Shown here one piece after another: positions 10,866 through 62,469 of a stretch of DNA of 64,000 nt; the stretch's first letter is position 1, and each line of letters begins with the position of its first letter. The DNA is taken from assembly GCA_964016885.1 (NCBI GenBank), contig OZ024763.1, forward strand, positions 25,978,001 to 26,042,000. The letters run 5' to 3'. The stretch is from Eledone cirrhosa (lineage: Eukaryota). Made by a program: the position numbers and the translations under genes. The notes beneath the pieces are model-generated. The model worked only from the letters and a program-made list of their open reading frames with translations, was not told where the DNA came from and made no database searches.

Positions 10866-11138
10866 TCAAAGCTAACACACACATCTACATGCTCAATAAT
10901 CAGGTACGAGAGTTTAAGAACGTCACTGCAGATCATCTGGTTGTAGGATCAAATCAGGCCTAGAGAGACGAGAAACAAAGTCAAGATATATTTTATTAAA
11001 GGCCCCAAAAAGTAAAAGCCAATGTCGACCTCTTTGTAGTTTCAATAAAACTGAGAAAGCCATGAACACCACCACGTCTATTAAACTTCCAAAACAGAAA
11101 GTAGGTTTATAAATATTAATTTTCCAAGTATTTTTAAA

Positions 11139-11234
11139 GCCGTCTCATTGACCTAATGGTAGGTGTTAGAGACGGTGGAGATCTTGGTCAGGGTTTCGAT
11201 CTTGGCCAGGATCTGTATAAAATAAGGGGGTTTT
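11139..11234 (+). ncRNA. Putative Pol III two-hairpin small RNA, unit 1
   Basis: TATA at 11108 (-31); motif catgaacaccaccacgtc at -78..-61; hairpin 1 gccgtctc/gagacggt with inner accta/taggt; hairpin 2 agatcttggtc/ggccaggatct around gtttcgatc; TTTT at 11231. Confidence 0.55.
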
Positions 11235-11343
11235 GCAAATTTTTTACAGTTTTTTTTTTTTTTTTTTCCAATGTAAAATTACAAAAATTTATGGTAAAAG
11301 GAAAAAAAATGTTTATTTACTTTTTGACATTTTTAAAAAGCTG

Positions 11344-11453
11344 AAAAAAAATTAGTGAAACCCCCTTATTTTATCTCGATCGTGGCTAAGATTGAACCTC
11401 CAGACCAGGATCCCCACCATCTCTAACACCTACCAATAGCCCAATGAGACAAC
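11344..11453 (-). ncRNA. Putative Pol III two-hairpin small RNA, unit 2
   Basis: TATA at -31; gttgtctc/gagatggt stem with G:U pairs; B box ggttcaatc; T8 terminator; upstream -78 motif partly deleted. Confidence 0.45.
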
Positions 11454-11540
11454 TTTAAAAATACTTGGAAAATTAATATTTATAAACCTACTTTCTATTT
11501 TAGAAGCAAAATTCATGCCTTTCCCAGAGTTATTATTTCT

Positions 11541-11966
11541 ATTGGCAGTATCGGTAGAGGGTCGGACGCCATGCTTTGACGCATAGAGTTACGGCCCTTT
11601 CCATTCTGAGTTCAAATCCCGCCGAGGTTAACTTTGCCTTTCATCCTTACGGGGTCGATAAAATAAAGTACCAGTAATGTACAGGGGTAATTGCTGGCCT
11701 TGTGCCTAAAGTAGAAACAATTATTACTAAAAAAAAGGTCGAGGGCGGTGGATTGGCAATATCGGTAGAGGGTCGGACGCCATGCTTTGCAGCATAGAGT
11801 TACGGTCCTTTACAGTCTGAGTTCAAATCCCGCCGAGGTTAACTTTGCCTTTCATCCTAACGGGGTCGATCAAATAAAGCACCAGTAACGTACTGGGGTC
11901 GATTTAATCGATTTTTCCCCTCTCCCAAAATTGCTGGCCTTGAGCCTATATAAGAAACCATTATTA
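11541..11966 (+). mobile_element. Two tandem Nin/Deu-like tRNA SINEs
   Basis: ttggcagtatcggtagagggtcggacgccatgc...gagttcaaatcccgccgaggttaactttgcctttcatcc...gaaacaattatt at 11541 and 11742. Confidence 0.9.
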
Positions 11967-13185
11967 CTAAAAAGGGTCGACATTATTTTTCATCCTCAAG
12001 TAAATCTTCACTTTGTTTCTTATTGCTCTAGGGTTGATTTGAACCTACAATTGCTCCGACTTCAGTAATATTCTCTAACTTCAGATCTGTCATACCTAAT
12101 TAATGTGTGTGTGAAAGATTCCAACCTAGTGTGCCGTGTCTGCAAATTGTCAAACCTGATTCCTATATAGATAGATAATTTCTGTACGTTTGTAAGATTT
12201 GAACCTACAATGAGGTGATTTCAACTAATGGCCCTACGTATATGTATTTTTTCTTTTGTTAAAAATAATAATTAAAAGAAACTCTATATCTCCCGGAAAA
12301 GATTGAACTAACAACACTTTAAACTACATTACACCAATAACAACTAAGCTACCGATACACTAATTTCTATGTCAAAAATAATTAACTCCTCAATTTTTAA
12401 ATTACATTACTCCACCTCTTTATATTTTGAGAGCAAATCTTGTTGGAATTTATTTTTAATTTCTATCTTTTTCGAGTAGATAATAGTATAGTACCAGTCA
12501 TCTATTTAGTCAATTGGCTTCTTCCTCTAAATTTCTGGACTTGTTCCTAAGTAACAGATACACACAGTATATATCCGAACCACCAGTTTTAGCATTGGTA
12601 AACAACCTAATGTAAATGATATATAGTTTGTTAATGAAACATATTTTATTCCACTTATTATAAGTACATGATTGCAATAACAACAAAAGAAAAGAAAAAG
12701 TATTAAATAATGAAAGAAATTCTCATTCAGTAGACGTATTTTAATTTTTATTGTTTTCATTACATTAACTGCTCAGTGTACATTTTGTTTTTGTTCTTAC
12801 CATTTTCTACGTTGAATATATATATATTTGTATGTATGTGTGTATAAATATATATGTATATACCTAAGAATGTACATAAACACACACACATACACATATG
12901 TATATGTATATATACTATCCGGGAGCTTCCAACAGTAATGTTTGCATTCTTTAAGGGTATGTCAATATTTATTTATAAAACTGCTCTATATTATATTTTA
13001 TCTGATGAAAGCACACCATAATTTAACTTGGTGTCCTTGAAATATGTATAATGAAATAAATATGGTTTTATAAATATAGTTTCCATTTGTTAATATCGTA
13101 TTTTTACTCCAATTATTTGTTGAGTGCTTTATATCAGTTATAAAAATATTTGCTTGTTGTATCCCAACAATTTAAATAGAACTTT

Positions 13186-18450
<5,265 letters not shown>

Positions 18451-19077
18451 ATATTGCTATGTATATGCATATTCGTATAATTATACTGTATATTATTAGT
18501 TCATATATTCATATACAGTTACCCCCCCCCCCGGCATTCGTGGGGTTTACGGTCCTAGAGAACCCGAGAATAGTGAAAAACCGCCAATATTGTAGGTGGT
18601 CCATAGAAATGCCTATAAACCTCAAAATACAACGTAAAATTTAATAAAAATCGAGTGAGCGTCTTATGGAAGGGGCGTCCAATAGGCCAGCAAATACAAT
18701 ATATTGTTGTTATTGTTGTTAATAATTTAGCGTTAAAACAATATATATTGTCACAGAAAAGGCATATATATATATATATATAGTATTTACGTATCGAGAA
18801 AGAGAGAAAAAGGAGGGATAGGTGATACATATAGTTATTTGCCAAGTAGCGTATGCCAAAGGTGCTCGATACTAGTGCCGGCAGTATTAAATATTCGAAG
18901 TGTTAATATTTAGTGGGCTAGAGAGTTAGCAGAGCGTAAGCATGTGGGAAAGTAAAAATTCGGAGAATAGACCGTTAAAACATGTTTATTTAAAATATCA
19001 CCTACGTACGTTTCGCCCAGTTGGGCTTCTCAAGGACATAAATAATTACAAGTGTTCCCTATATAGTTCGGAAAGAG

Positions 19078-19124
<47 letters not shown>

Positions 19125-19131
<7 letters not shown>

Positions 19132-19510
19132 CTCTGACTGCTATTTCTAGCATACACTAGAAAAAACTGGAAGTGGAGAAAATTGAAAAACTTCTTCTTT
19201 TTCCCCCTCTAACTTTTCAAACAAAAGAAAATTTTATGTAAACAAAAACGAAATTTTTGCCAAGAAAGATAACTCTTCTCTGACTTAAATCCAAAATTGG
19301 GATACAAAAAATTGCAGAATTTTTTTTTGTATCCCAATTTTGGATTTAAGTCAGAGAAGAGTTATCTTTCTTGGCAAAAATTTCGTTTTTGTTTACATAA
19401 AATTTTCTTTTGTTTGAAAAGTTAGAGGGGAGAAAAAGAAGAAGTTTTTCAATTTTCTCCACTTCCGATTTTTCTTTTTTATGCTAGAAATAACAGTGAA
19501 AGCAATATAT
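19125..19510. mobile_element. Near-perfect ~385-bp palindrome (foldback/MITE); diverged half copy at 56087-56290
   Basis: Arms ...ctatttctagcata...ccaaaattgggatacaaaaaa and ttttttgtatcccaattttgg...tatgctagaaataac; loop about 10 nt; TA-rich flanks. Confidence 0.8.
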
Positions 19511-19585
19511 ATGTATATATATTCAGTGAACCCCGGCATTCGCGGGACCAATTATTCGCGGAATATTCATTAGAACCTAAGTAAT

Positions 19586-19720: not shown

Positions 19721-19844
19721 GAATATATATATATAGAAATAGACACACAGATATATATATATATATATACACATATATATATATGTATGTATGTGTGTAT
19801 ACATATATTTATGTATATATATAAGTATTTATATGTATATATAC

Positions 19845-20781: not shown

Positions 20782-21548
20782 TTTGTGTGTGCGTTAATTT
20801 CGTGGGTAACTGCAGTTAACGTTCATCTCGTGTTGGGTTTTATTCCAGAGTTAAAGCGACTGTAGAGTATGAATAAAAAAGTAATAAAGATCGAAAACAC
20901 TGTTGCTGTATATATACATTTTATTGGCAGATTAGAATTGTTTCAATATTGATAGCTCGGAGTACAATCGTAATATGTATATATTTTTCACATGAAATCA
21001 ATATTCAAACTGACCCCAGTGTGTTTAGTTTAAAGTGACGTAATTCTATCCCCCAGGGTTTTGAACACAGTTTCATGTTACAGGGTGGTACAATGAAGCA
21101 GAGAGAATATAAAATCGCTACACAGGTGGCATATTTAGTGTTTCACCGGTTTTCTTATAACAATACACTGGATACGACGGGCATGATAGAGGTAAATGAA
21201 ATCATTATTTTACATTGACGCAATACATATGTTCATGCATAGAATATACCCCACCCATATATATATAATTCAGATGATAAAAGTTGGTTGATCGTATAAT
21301 CGGCCGACCTTTTTGTAAACAACCGTAACTCACTCTACGATTTGTATTGCTTAGGGTTTTCTCGGTAATGTATCAACCGGAGTTTCAATATAATGAATAA
21401 GAGAGACCGTACGTACGTACGTATGTATGCATGCATGCATGCATGCACGAACGCATGCATGCACGCACGCATGCATGCATGCATGCATGCACACACACAC
21501 ACACGCACACATATATAAACATGTATATTTATGTATAAAATATATATG

Positions 21549-22038
21549 TGGCATACGTCAAAACGGCCCGTCGCAAAAGTGAAACTAATTTTTGACAATT
21601 ACGTACGTCATTTTAATTTTGGATCGTGAAATTGTTTGTTTTTTATGCCTATATATATATATATATATGCATACATACATACATACATATATGTATACAT
21701 ATGCGTATATATATACATACACACATATATATGTATATACACACACACAATATATATGTATGTATATACAGACATATATATTTGTATATATATATATATA
21801 TATATATGAAATACTGTTGGCTTCACGCTCACAATTATTTCTATACTTTCATTTATATATATATATATATATATGGCATATATATATATATATATATATA
21901 TGGCATATATATATATATATATATATATGGCATATATATATTGTAAAAAAACAAACAATTTCCCAATCCAAATTGAATGTAATGACGTATGTCAAAAATT
22001 AGTTTCACTTTTGCGACCGGCCGTTTTGACGTATGCCT
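21549..22038. mobile_element. MITE with ~95-bp TIRs and microsatellite interior
   Basis: ggcatacgtcaaaacggcccgtcgcaaaagtgaaactaatttttgaca ... tgtcaaaaattagtttcacttttgcgaccggccgttttgacgtatgcc. Confidence 0.8.
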
Positions 22039-22161
22039 GTATATGTATGAATGTGTATATATATATATATATATATACATTCATACATATATATATATAT
22101 ACTGCCAATAATGGAATTGAACCATCAAGACAGTTGAGGTATGTCATACATCAATTCATGT

Positions 22162-25075: not shown

Positions 25076-25321
25076 CATCTACTCACTAAGGTGTGACAGC
25101 TGAAGGACATCACTGGATATCAGCTGGTCGTTGGATGAAATAAACCTAGTGATAAGAATAAAAGTCATGATATATTTTCTGAAAACTCCAGAAAAGTAAA
25201 AACCATGGCGACTTGTTTGTGGTATTAAAAAGACTGAGAAAGCCATGAACACCACCACGTCAATTAAGCTTCTAAAATAGAAAGTAGGTTTATATATATT
25301 AATTTTCAGTATATTTTTATA

Positions 25322-25417
25322 TCCGTCTCGTTGGCCTATTGGTAGGTGTTAGAGACGGTGAAGATCGAGGTTTGGGGTTCAACCTTAGCCAGGATCTATA
25401 TAAAATAAGGGGGTTTT
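25322..25417 (+). ncRNA. Putative Pol III two-hairpin small RNA, unit 3
   Basis: TATA at 25291 (-31); -78 motif at 25244-25261; A box tggcctattgg; B box ggttcaacc; ccgtctc/gagacgg stem; TTTT at 25414. Confidence 0.55.
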
Positions 25418-25529: not shown

Positions 25530-25625
25530 AAAACCCGCTTATTTTATATAGATCCTGGCCAAGATCGAAACCCAGACCAGGATCTCCACCGTCTCTCATA
25601 CCTCCCACTAGGCTACAAAGACAGC
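25530..25625 (-). ncRNA. Putative Pol III two-hairpin small RNA, unit 4
   Basis: TATA at -31; -78 motif at 25686-25703; A box tagcctagtgg; gctgtcttt/agagacggt stem (G:U); agatcctggtc/ggccaggatct stem; TTTT. Confidence 0.6.
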
Positions 25626-26378
25626 TTCAAAATAATATTAAAAATTAATATTTATAAACATACTTTTGATTTTGGAAGATTAATTGAAGTGGTGGCGTTC
25701 ATGCCTTTCTTAGTGTTGCTGTTATTAGAAAGGGTCGACTTTGTCTTTCATAATTCAGGGTCTTTCATGAAGTAAATATTCATTTTATTTCTTAACGCCC
25801 TAGTATTGATTTGAACCTACAATTACTTCGTCTGCAATAATGTTCACTAATTTCAAATCTGCCATACCTAAATCCTGTGTGCGACTTACAAATAAATTGT
25901 TAAATGTCACTTTTATATATTTACCAATGCGAGATTGGAACCTACAGTGATGTGCTTTGCAGTAATGTCCCGTAACTCCAACTAGATTTCGCTAAGCTTA
26001 TATATTTCTTTCGTCCGAACAAAATAATGGTTTCGATCCCAGTTCGCTACTGGTACAAGAAATAATTTAAAGAAATTCTATATCCCCAGCTAAATATTGA
26101 ACTCCTAACGACATTTTATGTTACTTAATACCAATAACCCCATTACACACTGAACATCTAAGCCCTGAACACACATTTATATTTATAACTCAATTTCCAA
26201 TTTTTTAAATGATATTACACCACCTTTGTGTTCTAGGTGAAAATCCTGTCGATATTAATTTACAATTTTATAACTTTAGAGAAGAAAAATAGAGTACCAG
26301 TCATTTTATGGGTTCAATTTAATCGATCGGCTTCACCCCGTCAATCACTTGACATTTGCCAAACAAAACACACAAACA

Positions 26379-28165: not shown

Positions 28166-28558
28166 GAATTACAGTAGGTTATTTTTAACGAAGGACGTCA
28201 ATAAATTTACTAGTGAGGTGTGACAGTTGAAAAAGGCCACTGCAGATTATCGGGTTGTAGGATGAAATGATCCTTAGAGAAAGTAAGTGAAGATATATTT
28301 TCTGAAATTGACAGAAGAATAAAAATCCAATGTCGACTCTTTTGAAGTATTGATAATTCTGAGAAAGACATGAATGCCACAACATCTATTATGCTTGGAA
28401 ATGCTGGGTAGGTTTCTGAAAGCTCCAGATGAATAAAATACAAGGTCGGTCGTTGGTAGTGCGAATAACATGGAGAAAGACATGAAGGCCACCACATCAA
28501 GTTTGCTTGGATATAGAAAAGTAGCTTTATAAACATAAATTTTCATAGTACTTTTGTG

Positions 28559-28648
28559 GCAGTCTCTGTTGGCTAATGGTATGTGTTAGAGACGGTGAAG
28601 ATCCTGGTCTAGGGTTCAATCTCGGCCAGGAGCTACACTAACGCTTTT
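28559..28648 (+). ncRNA. Putative Pol III two-hairpin small RNA, unit 5
   Basis: TATA at 28528 (-31); catgaaggccaccacatc at -78..-61; gtctct/agagac and tcctggtc/ggccagga stems; B box ggttcaatc; TTTT at 28645. Confidence 0.55.
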
Positions 28649-28669: not shown

Positions 28670-28779
28670 AAAAAAATTTGAATTCTTTCATTAAGACCCC
28701 TCTAGTCCTGGCCAAGATTGAACCCGAGACCAGGATCTTCACCGTCTCTCATACCTTCCACCAGGCCACCGAAACTTGC
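28670..28779 (-). ncRNA. Putative Pol III two-hairpin small RNA, unit 6
   Basis: A box tggcctggtgg; B box ggttcaatc; -78 motif at 28840-28857; TATA mutated to TACA; T7 terminator. Confidence 0.5.
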
Positions 28780-29696
28780 TACAAAAAGTTATGGAAAATT
28801 AATATTTGTAAATCTACTTTACTATTTTCAAGCAAAATTGATGTGGTGGCGTTCATGCCTTACTCAATGTTATAAATACTAAAAAGGGTCGACTTTGTCT
28901 TTCATCCTCCTGGGTCTTTGATAAATTAAATCTTCACTTTGTTTCTTATCGCTCGACTGTTGATTTGAACCTACAATGTCCCCGTCTACAATAATATTTA
29001 CTAACTTTAAATCTATCATACCTGGTTTGTGTGTGTGTGAAATATTCCCACCTCGTACAATACGCCCGTAAATTGTTAAACCTGATTTCTATATAGATAA
29101 TATATGTAGCAGTGTAAGATCTGAACCTACAATGATATGTTTTTCAGTAATTTTACACAATTTCAACTAAATAGCGATATGTATATGTTTTTCGTTTCTT
29201 AAAAATAAAAGAAATTCTATATCCCCAGCTAAATATTGAACTCCTGACAGCACCACAAACTACATTAAATACTTAACTACCAAGTCTCGCACGACTTTGT
29301 AACTAAATGATAAAATAATAACACCGCAATTTTTAATTGATATTACTTCACCTTTTTGTGTTCTCATCTCGATGAAAATCTGGCCCTGATTAATTTAACA
29401 TTTTTATTTTTGGATAGATAAAATCAGTCACATAGTGGATTCAATTTAATCGATCGAATTCTCCCCGTAAATTTCTGCCTTTTGCCTCAGTTACAAACAA
29501 AGAGGGTGTATCTGTATGTGTAAATATATATATATACATATATATTATATATATTAAAGTATGTGTTAGCAATAAATAAATAAAACAAATTAAATAATGA
29601 CAGTAAGACATTTTTATTCAGTAGTTTTATTGTTATTATGATTTTCAATACATTAACTGCCTAGTGTGCCTTTTGTTTTTGTTTCTTCTTATTTTC

Positions 29697-31640: not shown

Positions 31641-32008
31641 AACGAAGGACATCAATAAATTTAATAGTGAGGTATGAGAGTTGAAGAAGGCCACTGCAGA
31701 TTATCGGGTTGTAGGATGAAATGAACCTTAAAGAAAGTAAGTGAAGATATATTTTCTGAAATTGCCAGAAGAATAAAAATCCAATGTCGACCCTTTTGAA
31801 GTATTGATAATGCTGAGAAATAGATGCCACAACATCTATTATGCTTGGAAATACGAGGTAGGTTTCTGAAAGCTCCAGAGGAATAAAATACAAGGTCGGT
31901 CGTTGGTAGTGCGAATAACATGGAAAAAGACATGAAGGCCACCACATCAAGTTTGCTTGGATATAGAAAAGTAGCTTTATAAATATAAATTTTCATAGTA
32001 CTTTTGTG

Positions 32009-32098
32009 GCAGTTTCTGTGTGCTAATGGTATGTGTTAGAGACGGTGAAGATCCTGGTCTAGGGTTCAATCTCGGCCAGGAGCTACACTAACGCTTTT
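32009..32098 (+). ncRNA. Putative Pol III two-hairpin small RNA, unit 7
   Basis: Paralog of unit 5 (gtttct/agagac, a G:U change). Confidence 0.5.
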
Positions 32099-32119: not shown

Positions 32120-32229
32120 AAAAAAATTTGAATTCTTTCATTAAGACCCCTCTAGTCCTGGCCAAGATTGAACCCGAGACCAGGATCTTCACCGTCTCTC
32201 ATACCTTCCACCAGGCCACCGAAACTTGC
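32120..32229 (-). ncRNA. Putative Pol III two-hairpin small RNA, unit 8
   Basis: Appears identical to unit 6. Confidence 0.5.
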
Positions 32230-33969
32230 TACAAAAAGTTATGGAAAATTAATATTTGTAAATCTACTTTACTATTTTCAAGCAAAATTGATGTGGTGGC
32301 GTTCATGCCTTACTCAATGTTATAAATACTAAAAAGGGTCGACTTTGTCTTTCATCCTCCTGGGTCTTTCATAAATTAAATCTTCACTTTGTTTCTTATC
32401 GCTCTACGGTTGATTTGAACCTACAATGTCCCCGTCTACAATAATATTTACTAACTTTAAATCTATCATACCTGGTTTGTGTGTGTGTGTAAAATATTCC
32501 CACCTCGTACAATACGCCCGTAAATTGTTAAACCTGATTTCTATATAGATAATATATGTAGCAGTGTAAGATCTGAACCTACAATGATATGTTTTTCAGT
32601 AATTTTACACAATTTCAACTAAATAGCGATATGTATATGTTTTTCGTTTCTTAAAAATAAAAGAAATTCTATATCCCCAGCTAAATATTGAACTCCTGAC
32701 AGCACCACAAACTACATTAAATACTTAACTACCAAGTCTCACACGACTTTGTAACTAAATGATAAAATAATAACACCTCAATTTTTAAACGATATTACTT
32801 CACCTTGTGTTCTCATCTCGGTGAAAATCTGGCCCCGATTAATTTAACATTTTTATTTTTGGATAGATTAAGTATAGTACCAGTCACATAGTGGGATCAA
32901 TTTAATCGATCGAATTCTCCCCGTAAATTTCTGACTTTTGCCTCAGTTACAAACAAAGAGTTTATCTATGTGTGTATATATATATATATATATTAGTTTA
33001 AGTATGTGTTAGCAATAAATAAATGAAAAAAATTAAATAATGATTATAAGACATTTTTATTCAGTAGTTTTATTTTTATTGTGATTTTCAATACATTAAC
33101 TGTCCAGTGTGGCCTTTTGTTTTTGCTTATATTCTATTGCAAATGGCGGCTACGGCGAAACTGGATTACCAAGGTTTACTGGATGTTGTCTTTTGCTTTG
33201 TGGATTACTTTACAAACTGGAGACATCGGGATATCTACCGCAATACCCGAGATAAACATAAGGTGAGTCTTTTACGCAATATTTCGTTTTAAAGACATGT
33301 TCGACTTGATCAAATTTGACCTGTCTATGAGACAGAGATGCCATTTCAAAACAAACGACACAGACCAACCACGAATAATCTAACATTAGTTTTTCAAAAG
33401 ATAATCCATCTTTAAAGAAAGACAAATATTTAAAAATTGACGTTCAAAGGAACACTCGATGGCAGAAAGAATCTCAGCCGCAATTTAATGTCTGAGGTTA
33501 GACATTTTTAACGACATAAATATAGTTTAATGCCCCTCCTCTCACATCTGACTCGTTTTCTTAAAACTTACTTCTAATAATACATATTTTATAGACATAT
33601 ACTTTCGAAGGTAAACATTATGTTTTTGTGTTGTGTTTTGTAATTCGTAGTTTTAGAAATGACATTCCGATTATGTAGAAAATCTATGACATTATTCTGA
33701 TTGATATTATACTTTATCAACATGAGATTGGAAGACAGGCATAATTAACGAATTTTCAAGTTTATATTTAGCCGACTACAAACACAGTACGAAAGTTTTT
33801 AGTACACGAAATCTTTAACGAACTTAACTACATACAATAATGAAAGTATTTGAAGTAAATTAATGAGTTTCACCGACATTATCGTAATCTACATCATGGA
33901 AGACGGATCTCTGTATATTTTCATGTAAAATATATTCACCGTTAACAAATTCATGGAGTGACGACTAAA

Positions 33970-35130: not shown

Positions 35131-35370
35131 TCAATTAACCAGAAATTATTATGTCGTTGTTGTTGCTGTAAATGTGTAGTCAGGGTTTCAATCCTTAGCA
35201 GGGTTTGTAGAGTTACATTTACCTCTACCGATTCTGCTAATACACCGCCCCTGCCAATACACCGCCCTATGTAGTATTAATAAGACGGAACCAGCATGAA
35301 TGTAACCACATCTATTTAGCTTGCTAATAGAAAGTAGTTTCATATATATTAAATTTCAATTAGTTCTGTA

Positions 35371-35585
35371 GCTGTTATTGTTACGGTGGCCTAGTGGGGG
35401 TTATTAGAGACGGTGGAGGACCTGGTTTGGTTTTCAATGAAGACATACATTAAGGGGGTCTTACTTTTCCCTTTTATAAGAGAAAAAAAATGTAAGATTT
35501 AGTGAGATTATATCCTGATTCAGATCGAACTCACGACCAGGAACGGATTCACCTCTAATACATACCATTGGGTCACCAATACGGA
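35371..35585. pseudogene. Degenerate convergent pair of the Pol III RNA units (9 on +, 10 on -)
   Basis: + strand ggtggcctagtgg...agagacggtggaggacctggt with B box lost; - strand tgacccaatgg...ttcctggtcgtgagttcgatc; upstream catgaatgtaaccacatc at 35295. Confidence 0.45.
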
Positions 35586-36217
35586 TTTAAAACCTCATTG
35601 AAAATGAATATATATCAACCTACTTTCAATATGAAACCAATATTGTTGCAGATGTTCGGTTTTCTCTTAGCTTTCATAAATTGAATGTTGAATTAGCTTC
35701 TCATCAATATAGGGAAGATTGTAACATTCAATAATTCCGTATATATATATATACATACAGACACGCATAAACATATATATTTATATGTATATATATATAT
35801 ACATACAGACACGCATAAACATATATATTTATATGTATATATATATATATATACACACACACACAAACATATATATTTATATGTATATATATATATACAC
35901 ACACACAAACATATATATTTATATGTATATATACACACACACATTTATTTATATATCTATACACATATATATAAATAAATTATTTATATATATAAAACAA
36001 AGAAATAAGTCACCAAGTTTAACAGCTTATAAATTATTTATTTGATCAACACTTGTTTCATTGCTATTACATGTTACACATCTTTAGAAAGACATCGCCA
36101 GGAACAATTCTAAACATAACATTGGAAGTCTGCAATAGAAAATAAATCAATTTTGAGGTTGAATATATATTTCAATGCCATATTGTTGTTTTATCAACTG
36201 AAAGAATTTTCAACACG

Positions 36218-43100: not shown

Positions 43101-45074
43101 AGAGGAGTGGGAAACAAGAGAGAGGAGGGAGAGAGGAGTGAAAGAAGGGAGAGGGGAGTGAAGCGATAGAGGAGGGAGAGGGGAGTGAAACAAGAGAGAG
43201 GGGAGGGAGAGGAGAGAGGAGTGAAACAAGGGAGAGAGAGGAGTGAAGCAAGAGAGAGGAGGGAGAGAGGAGGGAAACGAGAGGAGTGAAACAAGAGAGA
43301 GGAAGGAGAGGCGAGGTAGAGGAGTGAAATAAGAGGGAGAGAGGAGTGAAAGAAGAGAGAGAGGAGGAAGAGGGGAGGGAGAGAGGAGGGAGGAAGAGGG
43401 GAGGGAGAGAGGAGGGAGGAAGAGGGAGAAGTGAAACAAGAGAGAGGCGAGAGGAGGGAGAGCGGAGTGAAACAAGAGAGAGAGGAGGGAGTGAAACAAG
43501 AGAGAGAGGAGTGAAACAAGAGTGAGAGGAGGGAGAGAGGAGTGAAACAAGAGAGGCGAGGGAGAGAGGAGAGAGGAGTGGAAGGACGGAGAGAGGAGTG
43601 AAGCGAGAGAGGAAAGAGGAGAGAGAGAGGAGTGAAAGAGAGAGGGGAGGGGGAGAAGAGAGAGGAGAGAGAGAAGAGGGAAACAAGGGAGAGAGGAGTG
43701 AAACGAGGAGTGAAACAAGAGAGAGGAGGGACAGATGAGTGAAACAAGAGAGAGAGGAGGGAGAGAGGAGTGAAGCGAGAGAGGAAGGAGAGGAAAGAGG
43801 AGGGAGAGAGGAATGAAACAAGAGAGAGGGGAGGGAGAGAGGAATGAAACAAGAGAGAGGGGAGGGAGAGAGGAGTGAAACAAGAGAGAGAGGAGGGAGA
43901 GGGGCGAGAGAGAGGAGTGAAACAAGAGAGAGAGGAGGGAGAGGGGCGAGAGAGAGGATTGAAACAAGAGAGAGAGGAGGGAAAAGAGAGCGAGAGGAGT
44001 GAAACGAGAGAGGAAGGAGAGAGGAGGGAGAGAGTAGTGAAACAAGAGAGGGGAGGGAGAGAGAGGAGAGAAACAAGAGAGAGGAGTGAAATAAGGGAGA
44101 GAGGAGGGAGAGGAGTGAAACACGAGAGAGGAGGGAGAGAGGAGTGAAACAAGGGAGAGAGGAGGGAGAGGGGAGTGAAGCAAGAGAGGATGGAGAGAGG
44201 AGGTAGAGCGGAGTGAAGCAAGAGAGAGGAGTGAAACGAGGAGTGAAACAAGAGAGGAGGGAAAAGAGAGAGAGAGGAGTGAAACAAGAGAGAGGAAGGA
44301 GAGAGAGAGTAGTGAAACAAGAGAGGGGAGGGAGAGAGAGGAGAGAGGAGAGAAACGAGAGAGAGGAGTGAAACAAGGGAGAGAGGAGGGACTGGAGTGA
44401 AACACGAGAGAGGAGGGAGAGAGGAGTGAAACAAGGGAGAGAGGAGGGAGAGGGGAGTGAAGCAAGGGAGAGAGGAGGGAGAGGGGAGGTAGAGCGGAGT
44501 GAAGCAAGAGAGAGCGGAGTGAAGCAAGAGAGAGAGGAGTGAAACGAGGAGTGAAACAAGAGAGAGGAGGGAAACGAGAGAGAGAGAGGAGTGAAACAAG
44601 AGAGAAGAAGGAGAGGAGTGAAATAAGAGAGAGAGGAGTGAAACAAGAGGGAGAGAGGAGTGAAAGAAGAGAGAGGAGGAAGTGAGGAGTGAAACAAGAG
44701 AGGGGAGGGAGAGAGGAGTGAAAGAAGAGAGAGGAGGGAGAGAGGAGTGAAAGAAGAGAGAGGAGGGAGAGAGGAGTGAAAGAAGAGAGAAAGGAGGGAG
44801 AGGGGAGTGAAGCAAGAGAGGATGTAGAGAGGAAGGAGAGAGGAGTGAAACGAGGAGTGAAACAAGAGAGGTAGGAGGGAGAGAGGAGAGGTAGGAGGGA
44901 GAGAGGAGTGAAACGAGGAGTGAAACAAGAGAGGAGGGACAGGAGTGAAACAAGACAGGGGGGAGGGAGGGAGGGGAGGAGTGAAACAAGAGAAAGAGGA
45001 GGGAGAGAGGAGTGAAACAAGAGAGAGGGGAGGGAGAGAGGAGTGAAACAAGAGAGAGGCGAGAGAGGAGGGAG
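40102..45074. repeat. 5-kb polypurine/polypyrimidine satellite with core GAGGAGTGAAACAAGAGA
   Basis: Core recurs every ~20-35 bp separated by variable GA runs; the 1600-aa ORFs are artefacts of it. Confidence 0.97.
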
Positions 45075-45080
45075 ACTTAC

Positions 45081-45585: not shown

Positions 45586-47010
45586 ACTATATATACTCAA
45601 TTATAAGCCGATTCCTTTTTTATTTGAGAAATAGGCCAGAATCCAAACCCCATTTATAAGCCATGGTGGCTAATCAACAGAGGACAGTTTTGAAATTCTC
45701 ATGAGTGGAGAATATATTTATGAAGTTTTAATATTTTGATATTTAAAATGTTTTAAGTGTCATTTAGAGTATAGTTTTAATTTCACTTCTTTATGTAATG
45801 AGTTACCATTTTCTGATTGATTTCAAGGCCATATTCATTAAAATCATCAAATATAATAGCAAATATAAATTTCACCTCCAAAGTGAAACTGGTGTAATAT
45901 TCCAAAGTGAAACTGGTGTAATATTCACCTCCAAAGTGTAACTGGTGTAATATATCCACCACCAAAGTGAAACTGGTGTAATATATTCACCTGCAAAGTG
46001 AAACTGGTGTAATATATTCACCTGCAAAGTGAAACTGGTGTAATATTCCAAAGTGAAACCGGTGTAATATTCCAAAGTGAAACTGGTGTAATATACCAAA
46101 GTGAAACTGGTGTAATATTCACCTCCAAAGTGTAAACTGGTGTAATATTCCAAAGTGAAACTGGTGTAATATTCACCTCCAAAGTGTAAAATGGTGTCAT
46201 ATTCACCTCCAAAGTGTAAACTGGTGTAATATTCCAAAGTGAAACTGGTGTAATATATTCACCTGCAAAGTGAAACTGGTGTAATATATCCACCTCCAAA
46301 GTGAAACTGGTGCAGTATTCACCTACAAAGTGAAACTGGTGTAATATTCCAAAGTGAAACTGGTGTAATATTCCAAAGTGAAACTGGTGTAATATTCACC
46401 TCCAAAGTGTAAACTGGTGTAATATTCCAAAGTGAAACTGGTGTAATATACACCTCCAAAGTGAAACTGGTGTAATATATCCACCACCAAAGTGAAAGTG
46501 GTATAATATTCCAAAGTGAAACGTAATATTCTCAAGTGAAACTGGTGTAATATTCACCTCCTAAGTGAAACTGGTGTAATATATTCACCTGCTAAGTGAA
46601 ACTGGTGTAATATATCCACATCGAAAGTAAAACTGGTGTAATATATTCACCTGCAAAGTAAAACTGGTGTAATATATTCACCTGCAAAGTGAAACTGGTG
46701 TAATATATTCACCTGCAAAGTGAAACTGGTGTAATATATTCACCTACAAAGTGAAACTGGTGTAATATTCCAAAGTGAAACTGGTGTAATATTGCAAAGT
46801 GAAACTGGTGTAATATTCCAAAGTGAAACTGGTGTAATATTCACCTCCAAAGTGAAACTGGTGCAAAGCGAAAATATTTTAGCACCTCATTTACATATAA
46901 TTTTTAAGTTGGTGAAATCAAAATATTGACCTCGAAGACAAGTCCTCCTCCCTATTTTACCATCAATATTTTGTCACATTTATCGACATATATACAAGTA
47001 TATACAATAT
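45586..47010. mobile_element. Tc2/pogo-like MITE remnants flanking a minisatellite
   Basis: Left tactatatatactcaattataagccga...gagaaataggccagaatccaaaccc; right aagttggtgaaatcaaaatattgacc...tcgacatatatacaagtatatac; both match the 9114-9334 element. Confidence 0.5.
45872..46866. repeat. Minisatellite with 24/29/31-bp units caaagtgaaactggtgtaatat(at)tc(acctc)
   Basis: About 35 tandem units, read directly. Confidence 0.95.
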
Positions 47011-53320: not shown

Positions 53321-53844
53321 ATAAATACTTATATACACACAAGCTTAAACAGGTATACATACGTACGCTTATCTAGACTCGTACGTACATAAACGTTTAT
53401 AAATAAAAGCCGAAGCTGATAAAAAGAACATAGCTTACCATATCGAATTTGGAAGGATGCACATAACTGTTTCTACTTTAGGCACAAGGCCAGCAATTAC
53501 CCAGTGCATTACTGGTACTTTGTTGCTTCAACATGGTCCCATCATCATTTGCTGATACGATTATTGCATACGCAACACAAGTTTAAAGGGCTATCTGTTT
53601 AGAAACCATCAAGCCAGGCCACCATCTAGACACTGAGGTATGACAGTTGAAGGACATCAGGTGGTTATAGCTTCAAATCAAACCAAAAGAGATAAAAATA
53701 AAATCATATATTTTCTGAAAACTACAGAATAGTAAAAGACATGTCGACACCTTTGCGGTATTAATAAGACTGAGAAGGGTATGAACGCCACCACGTCAAT
53801 TAAGCTTCGAAAATAGAAAGTAGGTTTATATATCTATTAATTTT

Positions 53845-55050: not shown

Positions 55051-55296
55051 TTTAATTAAATTATATTTAACCAAAGCTGTTATGTCGTGGTTGTTGTTAT
55101 ATTTTATAGTCGTGGTTTCAATGTTTATGAGGGGTTGTAGAATTAGTTTTATCTAATTATTATCAAACAAAAATGATGTATATATTGTCGTTGTACGTTG
55201 AAATCACATATATACATTTATATACACACCAAGGATGGAGGGAAGACGGAATTGAAAACCATTATTGCTGAGCACAACATTGCAGGATCAAATATA

Positions 55297-55329
<33 letters not shown>

Positions 55330-55555
55330 ATCAGGTATGACCATTGATGAATGTCCCTGCAGATCATCAGGTTGTAGGATGAAATCAACCCTAGAGAAAT
55401 GATAAGGTATATTTTATGGAAGCTTGAGAAGAATAAAAATGAAAGTGAACCATTTTGAATTAATATCATTGGGAAAGCCATGAAGGCCACTACATCAATT
55501 TTTCTTTTAAATAGAAAGTAGATTTATAAATTTTAATTTTGATAGTATTTTTGTA

Positions 55556-55650
55556 GTTGTCTTCGTAGCCTATTGGTAGGTGTTGGGACAGTGGTGATGC
55601 TGGTCTGGGGTTCAATCTCAGTCAGGAATCTCACGAGAAATTTAATTTTT
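55556..55650 (+). ncRNA. Putative Pol III two-hairpin small RNA, unit 11
   Basis: TATA at 55525 (-31); catgaaggccactacatc at -77; A box tagcctattgg; gttgtctt/gggacagt stem; B box ggttcaatc; T9 terminator. Confidence 0.55.
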
Positions 55651-55674
55651 TTTTAATTTTTCATAAAATGAACG

Positions 55675-55766
55675 AAAAATAGAGGTTGCAGGAATCTGAC
55701 TGAGATCGAACCCCAGACCAGCATCTCCATCACCTCTAATACTTACCACTAGTCTACAGAGGCGGT
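55675..55766 (-). ncRNA. Putative Pol III two-hairpin small RNA, unit 12
   Basis: TATA at -31; cgcctct/agaggtg stem (compensatory); B box ggttcgatc; T5 terminator. Confidence 0.55.
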
Positions 55767-55826
55767 TATAAAAACTTAGTGAAAATTAATATTTATAAAC
55801 CTACTTTTTCAATTTTTTATAAAAAC

Positions 55827-55927
55827 AAAATTTCTGTACAAGGTTTTCATGTACACCTGACAGAGATCGAACCCCTAATCAATATCACCACTGTCTCTAA
55901 TGTCTACCACTAGACCACTGAGACGGT
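55827..55927 (-). ncRNA. Putative Pol III two-hairpin small RNA, unit 13 (extra tandem copy)
   Basis: TATA at -31; A box tggtctagtgg; inner stem gtcta/tagac and ttgat/gtcag (compensatory); B box ggttcgatc. Confidence 0.55.
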
Positions 55928-58452
55928 TATGAAATCGTAGTGAAAATTAATATTTATAAAACTACATTTTGTTTCTGACGATCCCGTAACAAGTTTAAAG
56001 CAGCGATTCTTTGCTTAAACTTTAATTTGTACTCATAATAAATAAATAAACATATGTATTTATGTGTGTATACATGTATATTCGTTGCTTTGATGCTATT
56101 TCTAGCATATTTATTGTTGTTTTTTATGAAAAATACAGAAACCGGAAGTGAAAAGATTGAAAAATCTTTGGTCAAAATTCAGGCGAACATTTTTAAACAA
56201 AAGGATTTTTTTTGTAAACAAACTTGAAATTTTTGCCAAGAAACATAACTCTTGCCTGACTTAAACGCAAAAATTGATGCAAAAACTTTGCGTGTGTGCA
56301 AATTATAGGGACTGTACGAATTCGTTGTGAAAATTAATATTTATAAAACTACATTTTGTTCGGTTGAAAACTCGATGTAGTGGCATTCATGGCTTTTTCG
56401 GGACGTCCTTGAATTCATAAAGTAAATCTAGACTTTATTTCTCATTGCTCTAGGCTCGATTTGAACCTACAACAACTCCGTCTGCAATAATGTCATACCT
56501 CATTCCAGCTTAGTACGTCGTACCCGTAAATTGTTAAACGTGGTTCCTATATATACATGCAAGTAAGATTTGAACCTACAATGCTGTGCTTAATTTCTAT
56601 TAATAAGTGTGTTTTATAAAAGAAAGTAAAGAAACAATTTAATGAAAGTAAAAAATTTATTTTATTCAGGAATGTTTTTTTTTTTATTTTATGTATTCAC
56701 TTCATTAACTGCTGAATAGTTCTCTTGTTTTTGTTTTTGTTTGTTCTTACCATTGTTTACTGTAAATGTGACGAGACTGGATTATTACCAAGTTTTACTG
56801 GATGATGGCATTTCCTTATTTTGTTGTCAGTGGACATCTCTCTAAATACCTGGAATAAACATATGGTGTGTCTTTTACGTAACATTTCATTTAATATCTG
56901 ATGTTCCAATGGATTACTTTTAAAATAAAACCAATAAACAGGACAGGTAGACTCCATCAAAAGAGACCAGAGATGAGGTACGAATAATCTAAAATTAATT
57001 TTTTAAAAAGACAATGTTTAAAGAAAGAAACATTAAAAAAGGATTTCCAACAAACACGTAAAGACAAAGACAATCACATCCACAATTTAATATCTGAAGA
57101 TCAACATTTTTCACGATATAAATAAAACTAAATATGTAAAGTTAAGTGACCTCTCATTTATTTGCTCTAACTTTATTTTAATAATCTGTATTCTGTAGAC
57201 ATATATTTTCGTTGGTGTACATTACGATTTCGTTGATGAAAGTTTTCACTCGTCTTTAGATCTTTATTTCTTATAAAAGTTATCATACTCACCTCCTCTC
57301 ATTAGATCTCTATTTTACTTCTGGAATACTGTATTAACATTTATATTTTCATCTCGATATTATTAAGTATTAAGGTTGCCATGTATTAAATACAGTATAT
57401 AAACAAGGGAATATGAGGAGGGGTAATCATTTAAAAACAGCTAACCCCACACTCTGTGTATTTAGATTACCCCAGGGTGTCCCATGGGCGATTTCATATA
57501 TACATACACACATATATATACAAGTTATTGATTACAGAGTCGGGCTAGACCGATACAGAACGAACCTTAAGCTGATGAATAGCGACACGCGCGCCACGAA
57601 CCAATAAACGTAATGAAGGTGTACCCATTCGTCCTTGTTTTATTATATATATATTTTAATAAATATATATATAATATATATATATATACACATATTAATT
57701 AATTTATTTATTTATTTATTTCCACCTGGAGTTTCGACCGATAGATAGTATTAGCAATTGGAAAGACCAGTGGAAACATTGTTTCGTCGGTCCGATCTGA
57801 CGAAGGTCGATCGACTGTCTATATATGTATATACATACCCATACATTCATATTTACTCACTTCTATGTAAATATATATACATATTAAAAACACATACCAT
57901 ATACCAGCTTAAAAACGATTGACTAACCATCAGGACACATGCTTGCTCTTGTTAAAATTTCACAGAGATACTTATGAAAACCGAACTTGCAAGGCCACGT
58001 ACACTTACATACACACACCTGTACATACACAGACGTATAGAAAAGGTATGACTTATATAGGTACATCAAAGTTAATGTTCCACTATAGCACCATTCGAGG
58101 TAGATAAAACGAAGTACCAGTGTAGTAGTGGGGTCGATTCTTCTTCTATATCTCTTTCTTACTTCCTTTCTCCTACTTTCTCTCCTTCTCTGGTAAATAT
58201 CTCCTGTGATCAGATCTAGGGTAGAGATGGGATCAGTCAGCTTTTACAAAATACCCAAGACACCCCGAATATCAACGTGGGGTCACCAAGACTCCCTCGC
58301 AAGCTATACGTCCCTACATACATAGCAACATCAGACAGATCCTTTATGTAGATCACTTTTACTCGATGATGGAAGACAAGTGGAAATAGGCATCGACATA
58401 TAAATATACAAAAATAGGGGGACCTTATCATCATAAACACTTGGGCTTATGA

Positions 58453-58487
<35 letters not shown>

Positions 58488-58789
58488 ATTGGTGTTGGAT
58501 GCTTAAAGCCGTATTAGCACTCGATGCTCTCATAGAGTAGAGTATGATATCCCAGAAAAATAGAGAATCAGTGTTGCGACGAAGGGAATTTATTGGACAT
58601 ATTACAATCGTTTCTCTGGTGACCAAATCGAGTCACGATCGATGTGATGATCGAACCTGACTGAAAATTGTAAGGTCCTCAGATTTTCCTATTTCCATAC
58701 ATTTATTTACACACAAAGGATGGCAGACAGATCTCTGTATATTTTCATGAAATTATATTCACCGTTAACATGGAGTGACGACTAAACTG

Positions 58790-60200
58790 TAGTTATGTCC
58801 AAGCCAGTTGATACAATTCTAAGTTAGTTGATATATTTTGAAGTATTGCGAGATTTACTGAGTTCTTTTCTTATTGCCATAGCAAGTTCAAATTCACTAC
58901 AATGCTTTCTGCTCACTTTTACTCATCATCACAAATATTTCAATCTATTCATTCGTTCTTCATCTGTCATATCTTTTTATCATCATTTACTGTTGTGTCG
59001 TCTACTCCATCATTTAAACTATTCCATTCACTAATATCTCTTTGAGAAATATATATTTTCTGATGTCTTTAGAGCATTGTATCTTATAAACAGTATAATG
59101 GTGTCCTCTTCTTACATTTTCTTCTGTAATTTCAAATCCTTTCATTATCTTAAATATTTCTATCATGTCTCCCCTTAGCTTTATCTCCTCCAAAGTCGTA
59201 ATTCCTAGCTTTTTACATCTTTCTTCTCAAGAATTCTGGTATTTCATGCTTTTTTCTTCTCTGGATTCCTTCAATAGTTTCTCTCTCCTTTCGGAAGACG
59301 GGTGACCATACCTGCAAATAATATTCTAAGTAGTATCACACATATCATTTATCTAGAGTTTTAATATTTCTGTATTTAGGTAGGTAAAGTAATATTTCAT
59401 CATTCCTATAATCCGACTTGGTGTTGTGGTTTTTTCCTGTGAGATGGTTAGCTACCTTTAAATTCAAATTGATACATATTCCACATTTGTTGGGGGTGGG
59501 TGAAACAAAAAAAACACAATTTTACATCAATATTCGATGTTAAAACATGCTGGCGTCTTATACGTTCAAGATACAAATATGATAATTAAAGTATATACTA
59601 GCCATGTATATGTATCTCCCTATTTTTAACTCTTCCTCAAAACATATTTTCTTCAAAATGTATTCCGAAAAATCCTGTATGAGGTCTCTGTAAGTGTTCG
59701 ATTTTCAATAGATTGTATTGCCGTTGAAGATGCAATCATTTCTCCTTCTTATCAATAAACAATTTGTCATACAATTGTTGCTTCGTCCATTTTAAGTTTA
59801 GCTTCACAAACTATCGTTAATTCAAGATTTTGCTCTAATATAATAAATTATACTTTTAAAAGACTGACATTCTCACATTCATTCTTTATCTTCTATATTG
59901 TTATCTAATGAATAAAACAATGTATGTGAGATGTAGAAATAACACGACCTTCTTTCACCGCTGCAGATAGCAAACTGGCAGTGTGTTTAGCTGACAACGG
60001 TGAACATTACGTGCTTAGTGTTAAATCCCAACAAAGTACCATTTATATACCGTGTTAACTGGAAAGACGGACCAAATAAGGATACAATCTTCTCTCCTTA
60101 TCAATATTCTCCGAGATTGAGGACCTTGGTCCCTGAATAAGCAGTGAGATAAAGTGACAGGGTTGAATCTCTATCAAGAATTACAGTAGGTTATTTTTAA
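58790..60200 (-). mobile_element. Degenerate CR1 fragment (duplicate)
   Basis: Collinear with 26909-28165 and 30312-31640. Confidence 0.75.
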
Positions 60201-60570
60201 CGAAGGACATCAATAAATTTAATAGTGAGGTATGACAGTTGAAGAAGGCCACTGCAGATTATCGGGTTGTAGGATGAAATGAACCTTAGAGAAAGTAAGT
60301 GAAGATATATTTTCTGAAATTGCCAGAAGAATAAAAATCCAATGTCGACCCTTTTGAAGTATTGATAATGCTGAGAAAGGCATGAATGCCACAACATCTG
60401 TTATGCTTGGAAATACAAGGTAGGTTTCTGAAAGCTCCAGAGGAATAAAATACAAGGTCGGTCGTTGGTAGTGCGAATAACATGGAAAAAGACATGAAGG
60501 CCACCACATCAAGTTTGCTTGGATATAGAAAAGTAGCTTTATAAATATAAATTTTCATAGTACTTTTGTG

Positions 60571-60659
60571 GCAGTCTCTGTGGGCTAATGGTATGTATTA
60601 GAGACGGTGAAGATCCTGGTCAGGTGAAGATCTCTGCCAGGAGCTACACTAACGTTTTT
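60571..60659 (+). ncRNA. Putative Pol III RNA unit 14 (B box overwritten)
   Basis: Paralog of unit 5, but tagggttcaatctcg is replaced by aggtgaagatctct. Confidence 0.35.
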
Positions 60660-60680
60660 CATTTTACTAGAGATAAAATT

Positions 60681-60790
60681 AAAAACTTTTGAATTTTTTC
60701 ATTAAGACCCCTCTAGTCCTGGCCAAGATTGAACCCGAGACCAGGATCTTCACCGTCTCTCATACCTTCCACCAGGCCACCGAAACTTGC
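60681..60790 (-). ncRNA. Putative Pol III two-hairpin small RNA, unit 15
   Basis: Body matches unit 6; TATA region altered. Confidence 0.45.
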
Positions 60791-62469
60791 TACAAAAATT
60801 GATGGAAAATTTTTATTTTAAAACCTACTTTACTATTTTCAAGTAAAATTGATGTGGTGGCGTTCATGCCTTACTCAATGTTATAAATACTAAAAAGGGT
60901 CGACTCTGTCTTTCATTCTCCTGGGTCTTTCATAAATTAAATCTTCAATATGTTTCTTATCGCTCTACGGTTGATTTGAACCTACAATGTCCCCGTCTAC
61001 AATAATATTTACTAACTTTAAATCTATCATACCTGGTTTGTGTGTGTGAAATATTCCCACCTCGTACAATACGCCCGTAAATTGTTAAACCTGATTTCTA
61101 TATAGATAATATATGTAGCAGTGTAAGATCTGAACCTACAATGATATGTTTTGCAGTAATTTTACACAATTTCAACTAAATAGCGATATGTATATGTTTT
61201 TCGTTTCTTAAAAATAAAAGAAATTCTATATCCCCAGCTAAATATTGAACTCCTGACAGCACTACAAACTACATTAAATACTTAACTCACACGACTTTGT
61301 AACTAAATGATAAAATAATAACACCTCAATTTTTAAATGATATTACTTCACCTTGTGTTCTCATCTCGGTGAAAATCTGGCCCTGATTAATTTAACATTT
61401 TTATTTTTGGATAGATAAAGTATAGTACCAGTCACATAGTGGGATCAATTTAATCGATCGAATTCTCCCCGTAAATTTCTGACTTTTGCCTCAGTTACAA
61501 ACAAAGAGAGTTTATCTATGTGTGTATATATATATATATATTAGTTAAAGTATGTGTTAGCAATAAATAAATGAAAAAAATTAAATAATGATAGTAAGAC
61601 ATTTTTATTCAGATTTTCAATACATTAACTGTCCAGTGTAGCCTTTTGTTTTTGTTTCTGCTTATATTCTATTGCAAATGGCGGCTACGGCGAAACTGGA
61701 TTACCAAGGTTTATTGGATGTTGTCTTTTGCTTTGTGGATTACTTTACAAACTGGAGACATCAGGATATCTACCGCAATACCCGAGATAAACATAAGGTG
61801 CGTCTTTTACGCAATATTTCGTTTTAAAGACATGTTCGACTTGATCAAATTTGACCTATCTATGAGACAGAGATGCTATTTCAAAACAAACCACACAGAC
61901 CAACCACGAATAATCTAACATTAGTTTTTCAAAAGATAATCCATCTTTAAAGAGAGACAAATATTTAAAAATTGACGTTCAAAGGAACACTTGATGGCAG
62001 AAAGAATCTCAGCCGCAATTTAATGTCTGAAGTTAGACATTTTTCACGACATAAATATAGTTTAATGCCCCTCCTCTCACATCTGACTCGTTTTCTTAAA
62101 ACTTACTTCGAATAATACATATTTTATAGACATATACTTTCGAAGGTAAACATTATGTTTTTGTGTTGTTTTGTAATTTTTCAAGTAATTCGTAGTTTTA
62201 GAAATGACATTATTCTGATTGATATACTTTATCAACATGAGATTGGAAGACAGGCATAATTAACGAATTTTCAAGTTTATATTTTGCCGACTACAAACAC
62301 AGGACGAAAGTTTTTAGTACACGAAATCTTTAACGAACTTAACTACATACAATAATGAAAGTATCACCGACATTATCGTAATCTACATCATGGAAGACGG
62401 ATCTCTGTATATTTTCATGTAAAATATATTCACCGTTAACAAATTCATGGAGTGACGACTAAACTGTAG

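Follow-up and report, generated by a model that had tools for sequence, protein, structure and literature searches.

A candidate RNA polymerase III multigene family with a conserved upstream element in the genome of Eledone cirrhosa

Do the imperfect palindromes that recur in one stretch of the Eledone cirrhosa genome contain genes for a small RNA, and if so, of which kind? The stretch analysed here (the window) comprises 64,000 nucleotides of contig OZ024763.1 (assembly GCA_964016885.1, positions 25,978,001 to 26,042,000 of the forward strand) and is located on contig 24 of the 3.0 Gb genome. The original prediction, made from the letters of the window, had proposed 15 RNA polymerase III (Pol III) genes for a tRNA-derived double-hairpin RNA at seven named places. 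Our results indicate that these units represent a real, apparently undescribed multigene family of probable Pol III genes similar to 4.5SI and snaR, and that the best-kept part of the units is a 27-bp element upstream of the predicted start.

The units of the window and their upstream element

When the window was searched with a nucleotide profile seeded on 10 units, exactly 15 strong matches were obtained (E ≤ 4e-8; next best 0.19). The same 15 units were recovered with a covariance model, whose training set included 11 of them (44.6-93.6 bits; next best 17.1). Thus, the number and places of the proposed units were confirmed by both methods. The units are arranged as six convergent pairs and one triplet at 55.5-55.9 kb, so the proposed convergent pairs hold for all places but that one. 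A pattern of A box, 31-34 nt and B box was found 14 times in the window, compared to 0.07 times in local shuffles, and these matches correspond to 10 units, three heads of short interspersed elements (SINEs) and one relic.

In the window units the A box begins at +14, the B box follows 33 nt further on and a T-run comes after it. The type 2 Pol III boxes and terminator are therefore present as claimed, with a damaged B box in two of the 15 units (those at 35374 and 60568). From +1 to the first T4, the predicted RNAs are 91-111 nt long, and the two RNAs of one convergent pair do not overlap. The palindromes had been described as about 800 bp long; inverted arms were observed at all seven places, but the inverted similarity detected by BLAST covers only 290-530 bp per palindrome (71-78 % identity). 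An upstream flank of about 250 bp is common to the units, as had been noticed, and the blocks around them are segmental duplicates with 65-95 % identity. Both observations support the earlier view that the window units were duplicated at the DNA level. None of the 93 open reading frames (ORFs) of the window (beyond 10 kb; low-complexity ones excluded) had a Pfam match over the cut-off, and no exact match to the units was found in the metagenome and viral contigs searched.

The most conserved part of the units had been overlooked. It is a 27-bp AT-rich element with a TATA core, which precedes all 15 window units with 0-4 mismatches. When +1 is placed 13 nt before the A box, the element occupies -38/-12 and the TATA core about -30/-23. 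Unit 12 retains it even though it lies only about 20 bp behind the terminator of unit 13. The positions are listed below, where the units are profile and covariance-model matches given from +1 to the first T4, the elements come from the upstream-element scan and z is the fold z-score.

11098..11124, + strand, upstream TATA-containing element (-38/-12) of unit 1, 0 mismatches
11136..11234, + strand, unit 1, predicted RNA with two hairpins, z -6.9
11348..11456, - strand, unit 2, z -0.2
11468..11494, - strand, upstream element of unit 2
25281..25307, + strand, upstream element of unit 3
25319..25417, + strand, unit 3, z -3.1
25530..25628, - strand, unit 4, z -3.9
25640..25666, - strand, upstream element of unit 4
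28518..28544, + strand, upstream element of unit 5
28556..28648, + strand, unit 5, D stem broken, z -2.4
28673..28781, - strand, unit 6
28794..28820, - strand, upstream element of unit 6
31968..31994, + strand, upstream element of unit 7
32006..32098, + strand, unit 7, recent duplicate of unit 5
32123..32231, - strand, unit 8, recent duplicate of unit 6
32244..32270, - strand, upstream element of unit 8
35331..35357, + strand, upstream element of unit 9
35374..35468, + strand, unit 9, damaged B box with internal T4 and deletion, likely pseudogene
35487..35588, - strand, unit 10, diverged, outer stem broken
35600..35626, - strand, upstream element of unit 10
55515..55541, + strand, upstream element of unit 11
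55553..55649, + strand, unit 11, z -2.5
55676..55769, - strand, unit 12
55781..55807, - strand, upstream element of unit 12, 0 mismatches
55827..55930, - strand, unit 13, tandem to unit 12
55942..55968, - strand, upstream element of unit 13
56329..56355, - strand, orphan upstream element, homology ends a few bases past +1
60530..60556, + strand, upstream element of unit 14
60568..60658, + strand, unit 14, B box destroyed, likely pseudogene
60682..60792, - strand, unit 15
60805..60831, - strand, upstream element of unit 15

Remains of further copies were also seen in the window: a decayed unit on the minus strand (12283-12364), B-box relics at 31565-31629, 35033-35119 and 63668-63754, and a piece of upstream flank with a damaged element and no gene behind it (53817-53843, + strand). 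The far upstream flank of contig-24-type units contains, at a distance of about 200 bp, an additional conserved B-box-like motif (for instance before 25628 on the minus strand).

The association of the element with the family extends over the genome. It had 331 exact matches (0 for the reversed control), and in 40 loci examined all distinct matches but one lead into a recognisable family member. Conversely, when the RNA profile alone was used to find units, 218 of 234 distinct ones had the element upstream within 6 errors. The distance from element to A box was 51 nt in 327 of 393 cases. Box spacing, TATA and a terminator of T4 or more were all found, which places the units, as predicted genes, among type 2 Pol III genes with an upstream TATA-like box.

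Substitutions per column were computed in 44 contig-24-type representatives. The element showed the lowest value (1.63), followed by the B box (3.0), the middle part between A and B boxes (3.7) and the A box (3.8), and values of 4.3, 4.65, 4.8 and 8.6 were obtained for the RNA body, the -100/-39 flank, the spacer and the 3' tail, respectively. In the copies carried as passengers by a transposon (described below), the element changes at the background rate; its threefold slower change in the genes is therefore a sign of purifying selection. The RNA body is about twice as mutable as the flank in the transposon passengers, yet it changes no faster than the flank in contig-24 genes. This equality of rates despite the higher mutability suggests that the RNA body of contig-24 genes is under weak constraint.

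A type 3 promoter was also considered. The U6 and tRNA-Sec genes of this genome (loci L185, L186 and L195-L197) share a motif at about -78/-58, as judged by eye, followed by a TATA near -30, and this motif is likely the proximal sequence element of the species. No significant match was found between the upstream consensus of the family and the upstream regions of these genes. A promoter of the U6/tRNA-Sec type was thus ruled out for the family because the proximal sequence element is absent. The 27-bp element was not seen before the tRNA loci examined in this genome. It may resemble the AT boxes, two in number, known from the tRNA-Ala promoter of the silkworm. U6 genes also form a tandem array of at least 30 copies with a period of about 1.8 kb on contig 19 (31.78-31.84 Mb).

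Spread through the genome and footprints of transcription

Genome counts were obtained from exact patterns and are lower bounds. At least 497 matches were found for the 5' hairpin, at least 655 for the element plus start and at least 38, including 31 on contig 24, for the second hairpin of the window type; each reversed control gave 0. Among 40 scored genome matches of the 81-bp core of unit 4, 17 were identical, itself counted. The family was observed in four settings: clusters of pairs on contig 24, repeated within duplicated blocks; inverted arrays, often near contig ends, whose RNAs contain two or three B-box modules in tandem and reach about 145 nt; same-strand arrays on contigs 3 and 4, which are old and diverged and keep the promoter without pairs; and dispersed copies. 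Neighbours less than 700 bp apart were convergent in 51 cases, divergent in 14 and on the same strand in 24 (34 ten-kb stretches). In the assembled sequencing run of one organism (A), hundreds of related contigs were found. The assembled runs of organisms B and C yielded 9-10 short pieces each, which were either near-identical (151-190 nt) at low depth or AT-rich and were not counted as cross-species evidence.

Forty dispersed loci were taken from the first 100 places listed for the 5'-hairpin pattern. Twenty-four of them keep the element (21 with a convergent partner) and 14 are solo copies, with neither element nor partner. Of the remaining two, one is a pair whose element is deleted and the other repeats the 5' part in tandem. 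A minisatellite of about 55 bp with about 29 copies, also derived from the 5' part of the RNA gene, was noted on contig 5 (L152, 31.82 Mb).

The dispersed pairs sit inside an element with 14-bp terminal inverted repeats (TIRs), for whose two ends 356 and 260 exact matches were found. A target-site duplication (TSD) of 8 bp, with at most one mismatch, was read by eye in 8 of 17 elements having both ends. The length of the TSD indicates the hAT superfamily by established criteria, and the short TIRs starting with CAG agree with it. No hAT transposase was seen, although no search was aimed at one, and the ORFs in the elements looked like inserted retroelement debris. The full gene pair is present in only 7 of 40 right ends and complete elements without the pair exist. 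The ends and subterminal DNA of the element have no match in the window or array copies, which match the gene cassette only; the only TIR-like matches in the window are two 14-mers with 2 mismatches in the same orientation. For these reasons the gene pair was most likely captured by a non-autonomous hAT-type element. The possibility that the palindrome is a dispersed TIR element with TSDs had been named in advance as one that would overturn the gene interpretation: a sister pair is indeed carried by such an element, but the window copies have no such ends. Similarly, the earlier statement that the units have no tail and no TSD is true within the window and false genome-wide. We found no description of a DNA transposon with two complete Pol III genes in the literature searched. 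A left end of the TIR element also occurs, together with a tRNA-Ser(TGA) and one family gene, in a 1,685-bp tandem repeat on contig 1 (441.19-441.22 Mb; L190-L194). On the whole, the genomic arrangement indicates that the family has spread by inverted arrays, segmental duplication, hAT-type capture of one gene pair and retrocopying.

Two footprints bear on transcription. The first comes from the solo copies. Twelve of the 19 solos analysed begin between +1 and +7, and their 3' ends lie between +66 and +125, several at the T-run and several truncated. At least seven continue at the 3' end into retroelement tails, and the vault and tRNA-Sec retrocopies of this genome are joined to two of the same tails. 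One of the tails also stands behind an ORF remnant in the window that we take to be RTE-like, and another behind a remnant that is presumably CR1/L2-like. The best match of 12 of the 19 solos is a contig-24-type gene, i.e. the lineage of the window, by a soft assignment. The same pattern of copying from the 5' end and joining to a tail has been reported for U6 chimeras with L1, L2 and RTE elements (PMC4476161).

The second footprint is the mutation pattern in 25 transposon-borne copies, which provide a natural neutral control for transcription-associated mutagenesis. At non-CpG A/T sites, divergence was 9-11 % in the 11 bp before +1 and 5-6 % in the RNA; the element, the flank of arm B and the subterminal DNA had diverged by 2.8-3.5 %. 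The region before +1 thus changes 3-4 times faster than the flanks (p = 2.5e-6 for the excess over arm B). A similar hypermutability of the inner 5' flank is described for active tRNA genes (PMC6130373).

We conclude from both footprints that the family was very probably transcribed by Pol III in the germ line in the past, and the proposal of type 2 Pol III-like gene units receives independent genomic backing from them. Some observations weigh on the other side. Five of the 19 solos align further upstream over the AT-rich flank and two start at +12 or +14. The range of 5' ends is partly preset because solos were defined by the lack of the element and the pattern that retrieved 14 of the 19 begins at +7. 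TSDs are mostly unrecognisable, with a credible one in at most one or two of 15 solos. In the transposon-borne copies the coding strand lacks the expected excess of C>T (p = 0.74), and the far flank of arm A is also diverged (5.0 %).

Predicted fold, possible function and competing explanations

What would such genes be kept for? Our working interpretation, on which we stand evenly divided, is that the units form a large, likely octopus-lineage Pol III family of 90-145 nt non-decoding RNAs that may act in bulk as protein-binding tRNA mimics. If the units behave as Pol III genes are known to do, TFIIIC would occupy the A and B boxes and TFIIIB the upstream element, and Pol III transcripts would run from the purine at +1 to the first T4-T5. 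The 5' end is predicted to re-pair with the old anticodon-arm region, carrying the D arm, and the T loop is predicted to lie on the second hairpin. Docking of these two loops could give a tRNA-like elbow with no acceptor end or anticodon. Selection would act mostly on output, through the promoter, and more weakly on the RNA. Copies would turn over by birth and death, with inverted duplication into convergent pairs, segmental duplication, hAT-type capture and retrocopying. In a more far-reaching version, which we regard as speculative and rather improbable, octopods would have evolved an abundant Pol III RNA class with a rewired tRNA elbow on two hairpins. Its genes, hundreds to thousands of head-on pairs sharing one 27-bp promoter, would set the RNA dose through their number so as to titrate elbow- or double-stranded-RNA-binding proteins, and a cut-and-paste transposon would have broadcast them with intact promoters that still fire.

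The absence of a cloverleaf, as originally stated, was verified. ARAGORN found 0 tRNAs among the window units, and when 43 of 74 representatives (those with standard spacing) were placed in the tRNA register, the mean numbers of pairs were 4.1/7 for the acceptor stem, 2.1/5 for the anticodon stem, 2.4/5 for the T stem and 3.3/4 for the D stem. The pairs of the two-hairpin fold form in 76 % of cells compared to 37-47 % when slid, four pair types occur at the D-stem pair 12-23 and z-scores of -3 to -7 were obtained for three window copies. This fold describes the ancestral state well. Pairing of the 5' end with the 3' region into a closing stem was seen in a few folds only and is unsupported generally.

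However, the claim that the double hairpin is under selection did not hold. Raw covariation exceeds that of column shuffles and then vanishes in two tree-aware tests: the best pair had an E-value of 1.25 among 108 copies, and 82 pair-keeping changes were counted where 78.2 were expected (p = 0.29; 77 non-transposon representatives), in line with the mutation spectrum. RNAalifold gave no consensus fold on 41 diverse copies. The structural part of the original prediction therefore stays unproven. One alignment left out five broken representatives and 28 of 30 transposon-borne ones, and the power of the structure tests is limited because the paralogues include many decayed copies. Together with these null results, several further findings speak against the tRNA-mimic interpretation. 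Only 5 of the 15 window copies fold at z ≤ -2; the conserved bases of the D and T loops are also promoter bases, so that their conservation cannot show an elbow; the 3' half of the RNA varies widely across the family, including arrays with tandem B-box modules; and the transposon-borne copies show no constraint on the RNA.

The main competing explanation is that the units are selfish or otherwise DNA-level Pol III modules whose RNA is a by-product. Copies with strong TFIIIB and TFIIIC binding would be over-duplicated through fork stalling and inverted-pair recombination, or would be kept as chromatin barriers in duplicated or subtelomeric blocks. We consider this possible but doubtful. It agrees with the rank of the upstream element ahead of both boxes and with the lack of detected selection on stems; the tandem duplication of B boxes would aid TFIIIC binding more than a fixed fold; and the many convergent neighbours and clusters near contig ends fit as well. 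On the other hand, in contig-24 genes the middle part between the boxes is as conserved as the A box without being promoter, two strong hairpins foreign to tRNA arose at some point, and retrocopies from three subfamilies imply enough germ-line RNA for repeated capture.

The solo copies could also mean that the clusters act as the master loci from which a weak, simple SINE arises, with retroposition as the sole role of the RNA, and five of them (L088, L092, L142, L149 and L153) do share a head and a 3' end followed by AT-rich sequence. This is unlikely. Solos are a minority among the dispersed loci and far fewer when arrays are counted, they have no common tail and few credible TSDs, and their varied tails fit passive chimeras like those of vault and tRNA-Sec. 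Origin from a SINE head was rejected since similarity to the SINE heads in the DNA examined was no better than to shuffles outside the boxes. The window copies keep about 250 bp of upstream flank, which SINE copies would lack.

Still less probable is the explanation that the palindrome is the interior of a miniature inverted-repeat transposable element or hAT element and that the window copies are old ones that lost their ends. The TIR element does carry the convergent pair; nevertheless, the low proportion of right ends with a full pair, the elements without it, the restriction of window and array matches to the gene cassette and the same-strand arrays on contigs 3 and 4 with a promoter and no pairs all contradict it. 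The interpretation of the units as a gene family with a bulk, protein-binding RNA can be tested directly because its start, end and promoter are predicted to the base. If it is true, a major unannotated octopus RNA species exists that could be missed by both small-RNA and poly(A) libraries.

Relation to known RNAs and further features

Membership as a diverged form of a known class (vault, tRNA-Sec-derived, H/ACA small nucleolar RNA (snoRNA) or Y RNA) is hardly tenable and already largely refuted: size, type 2 promoter, duplicated B boxes in some arrays and an ACA/ATA after hairpin 2 in 28 of 74 representatives would suit it, but no relevant Rfam match was found, true vault genes lie elsewhere and the other marks of these classes are missing, as detailed below. 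Rodent vault RNA likewise has two B boxes.

Three stretches were compared with Rfam at E-values up to 5-10, and only AT-repeat and palindrome noise was obtained, as also among the best 150 of 259 matches of a further comparison. This agrees with the earlier suggestion of a possibly undescribed family. The original comparison with snaR and vault RNA was apt for an organisation like that of snaR, but the units are not members of the vault family: the vault model (RF00006) gave no score on the units, and neither a vault motif nor a terminal panhandle was seen. Vault membership also fails because the genome has a separate vault cluster on contig 3 (221.18-221.25 Mb; L157-L166), with 14 matches over the RF00006 cut-off in two alternating types. 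Two dispersed vault retrocopies (L167 and L168) are fused to retroelement tails. No description of octopus vault RNA turned up in the literature searched. An origin from tRNA-Sec was rejected: the units do not significantly resemble the tRNA-Sec of this genome (p about 0.08), and they lack the proximal element. H/ACA snoRNA was rejected with an H box in 2 of 74 representatives, and C/D snoRNA or Sm RNA with C/D boxes in 0 of 74 and an Sm site in 0 of 74. A parent tRNA was not identifiable among the 25 distinct tRNA-like genes compared, and no antisense target was found in the 1.2 Mb of this genome examined.

No description of such an RNA family was found in the literature searched; subscription papers, Repbase and Dfam were outside the search, and the TIR element or the solos may be catalogued in the two databases under an anonymous repeat name. 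The accessible part of the giant squid genome paper lists only Rfam-type RNAs (PMC6962438).

Lineage-specific Pol III RNAs are known mainly from mammals. The rodent 4.5SI and 4.5SH RNAs are the closest in form among those compared: as described in PMC10137851, they are 94-98 nt long, have type 2 A and B boxes and require a TATA-like box at -31/-24, close to the position of the TATA in the present family. According to the same source, 4.5SI is related to a tRNA-derived SINE, and 4.5SH, which is present in hundreds of copies in 4-5 kb tandem repeats, has recently been credited with counteracting toxic SINE exonization. In contrast, the candidate genes described here form convergent pairs behind a 27-bp element, have no detectable parent SINE and include a pair captured by a hAT-type element; a sequence relation is not expected. 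The primate snaR genes (PMC3045588) are likewise small, fast-evolving Pol III genes with segmental duplication, internal duplications near the boxes and retroposed relatives. They derive from Alu, are expressed and have NF90 and ribosomes as partners, whereas the present family, which is far larger, appears to descend from a tRNA, has its genes arranged head-on in pairs and carries a TATA element upstream of them. With vault RNA it shares size, clustered type 2 Pol III genes and, in this genome, chimeras with retroelement tails.

Two mobile systems may be compared. The TRIMp3 elements Helenus, Ajax and Cassandra (PMC10886601) are non-autonomous and have a Pol III promoter derived from a small RNA. 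They are long terminal repeat (LTR) retroelements with the unit inside direct LTRs. The element of the present genome is instead of the cut-and-paste type, with TIRs and 8-bp TSDs, and a minority of its copies contain two complete convergent genes. The template-switch chimeras of U6 with long interspersed elements cited above (PMC4476161) also join a small RNA, copied from its 5' end, to the 3' end of a retroelement. Here such chimeras are used as a footprint of transcription, and they differ in that TSDs are mostly unrecognisable and several solos are truncated at the 3' end.

The members of a dispersed tRNA-like family (L063, L065-L073) differ in anticodon (called Ala, Val, Thr and Asp) and have the same flanks on either side. 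The identical flanks mean that it was copied at the DNA level, perhaps inside another transposon. In the window itself, tRNA-derived SINE heads with the same 33-nt spacing of A and B boxes are located at 3260, 10653 and 49749 (+ strand). The window also contains a 5.3-kb TA-type microsatellite (13189-18454), a 4.9-kb GA-rich satellite (40193-45075), a 31-bp minisatellite (45871-46863) and two further palindromes unrelated to the RNA unit, at 19112-19522 (arms 93 % identical) and 21511-22080 (72 %).

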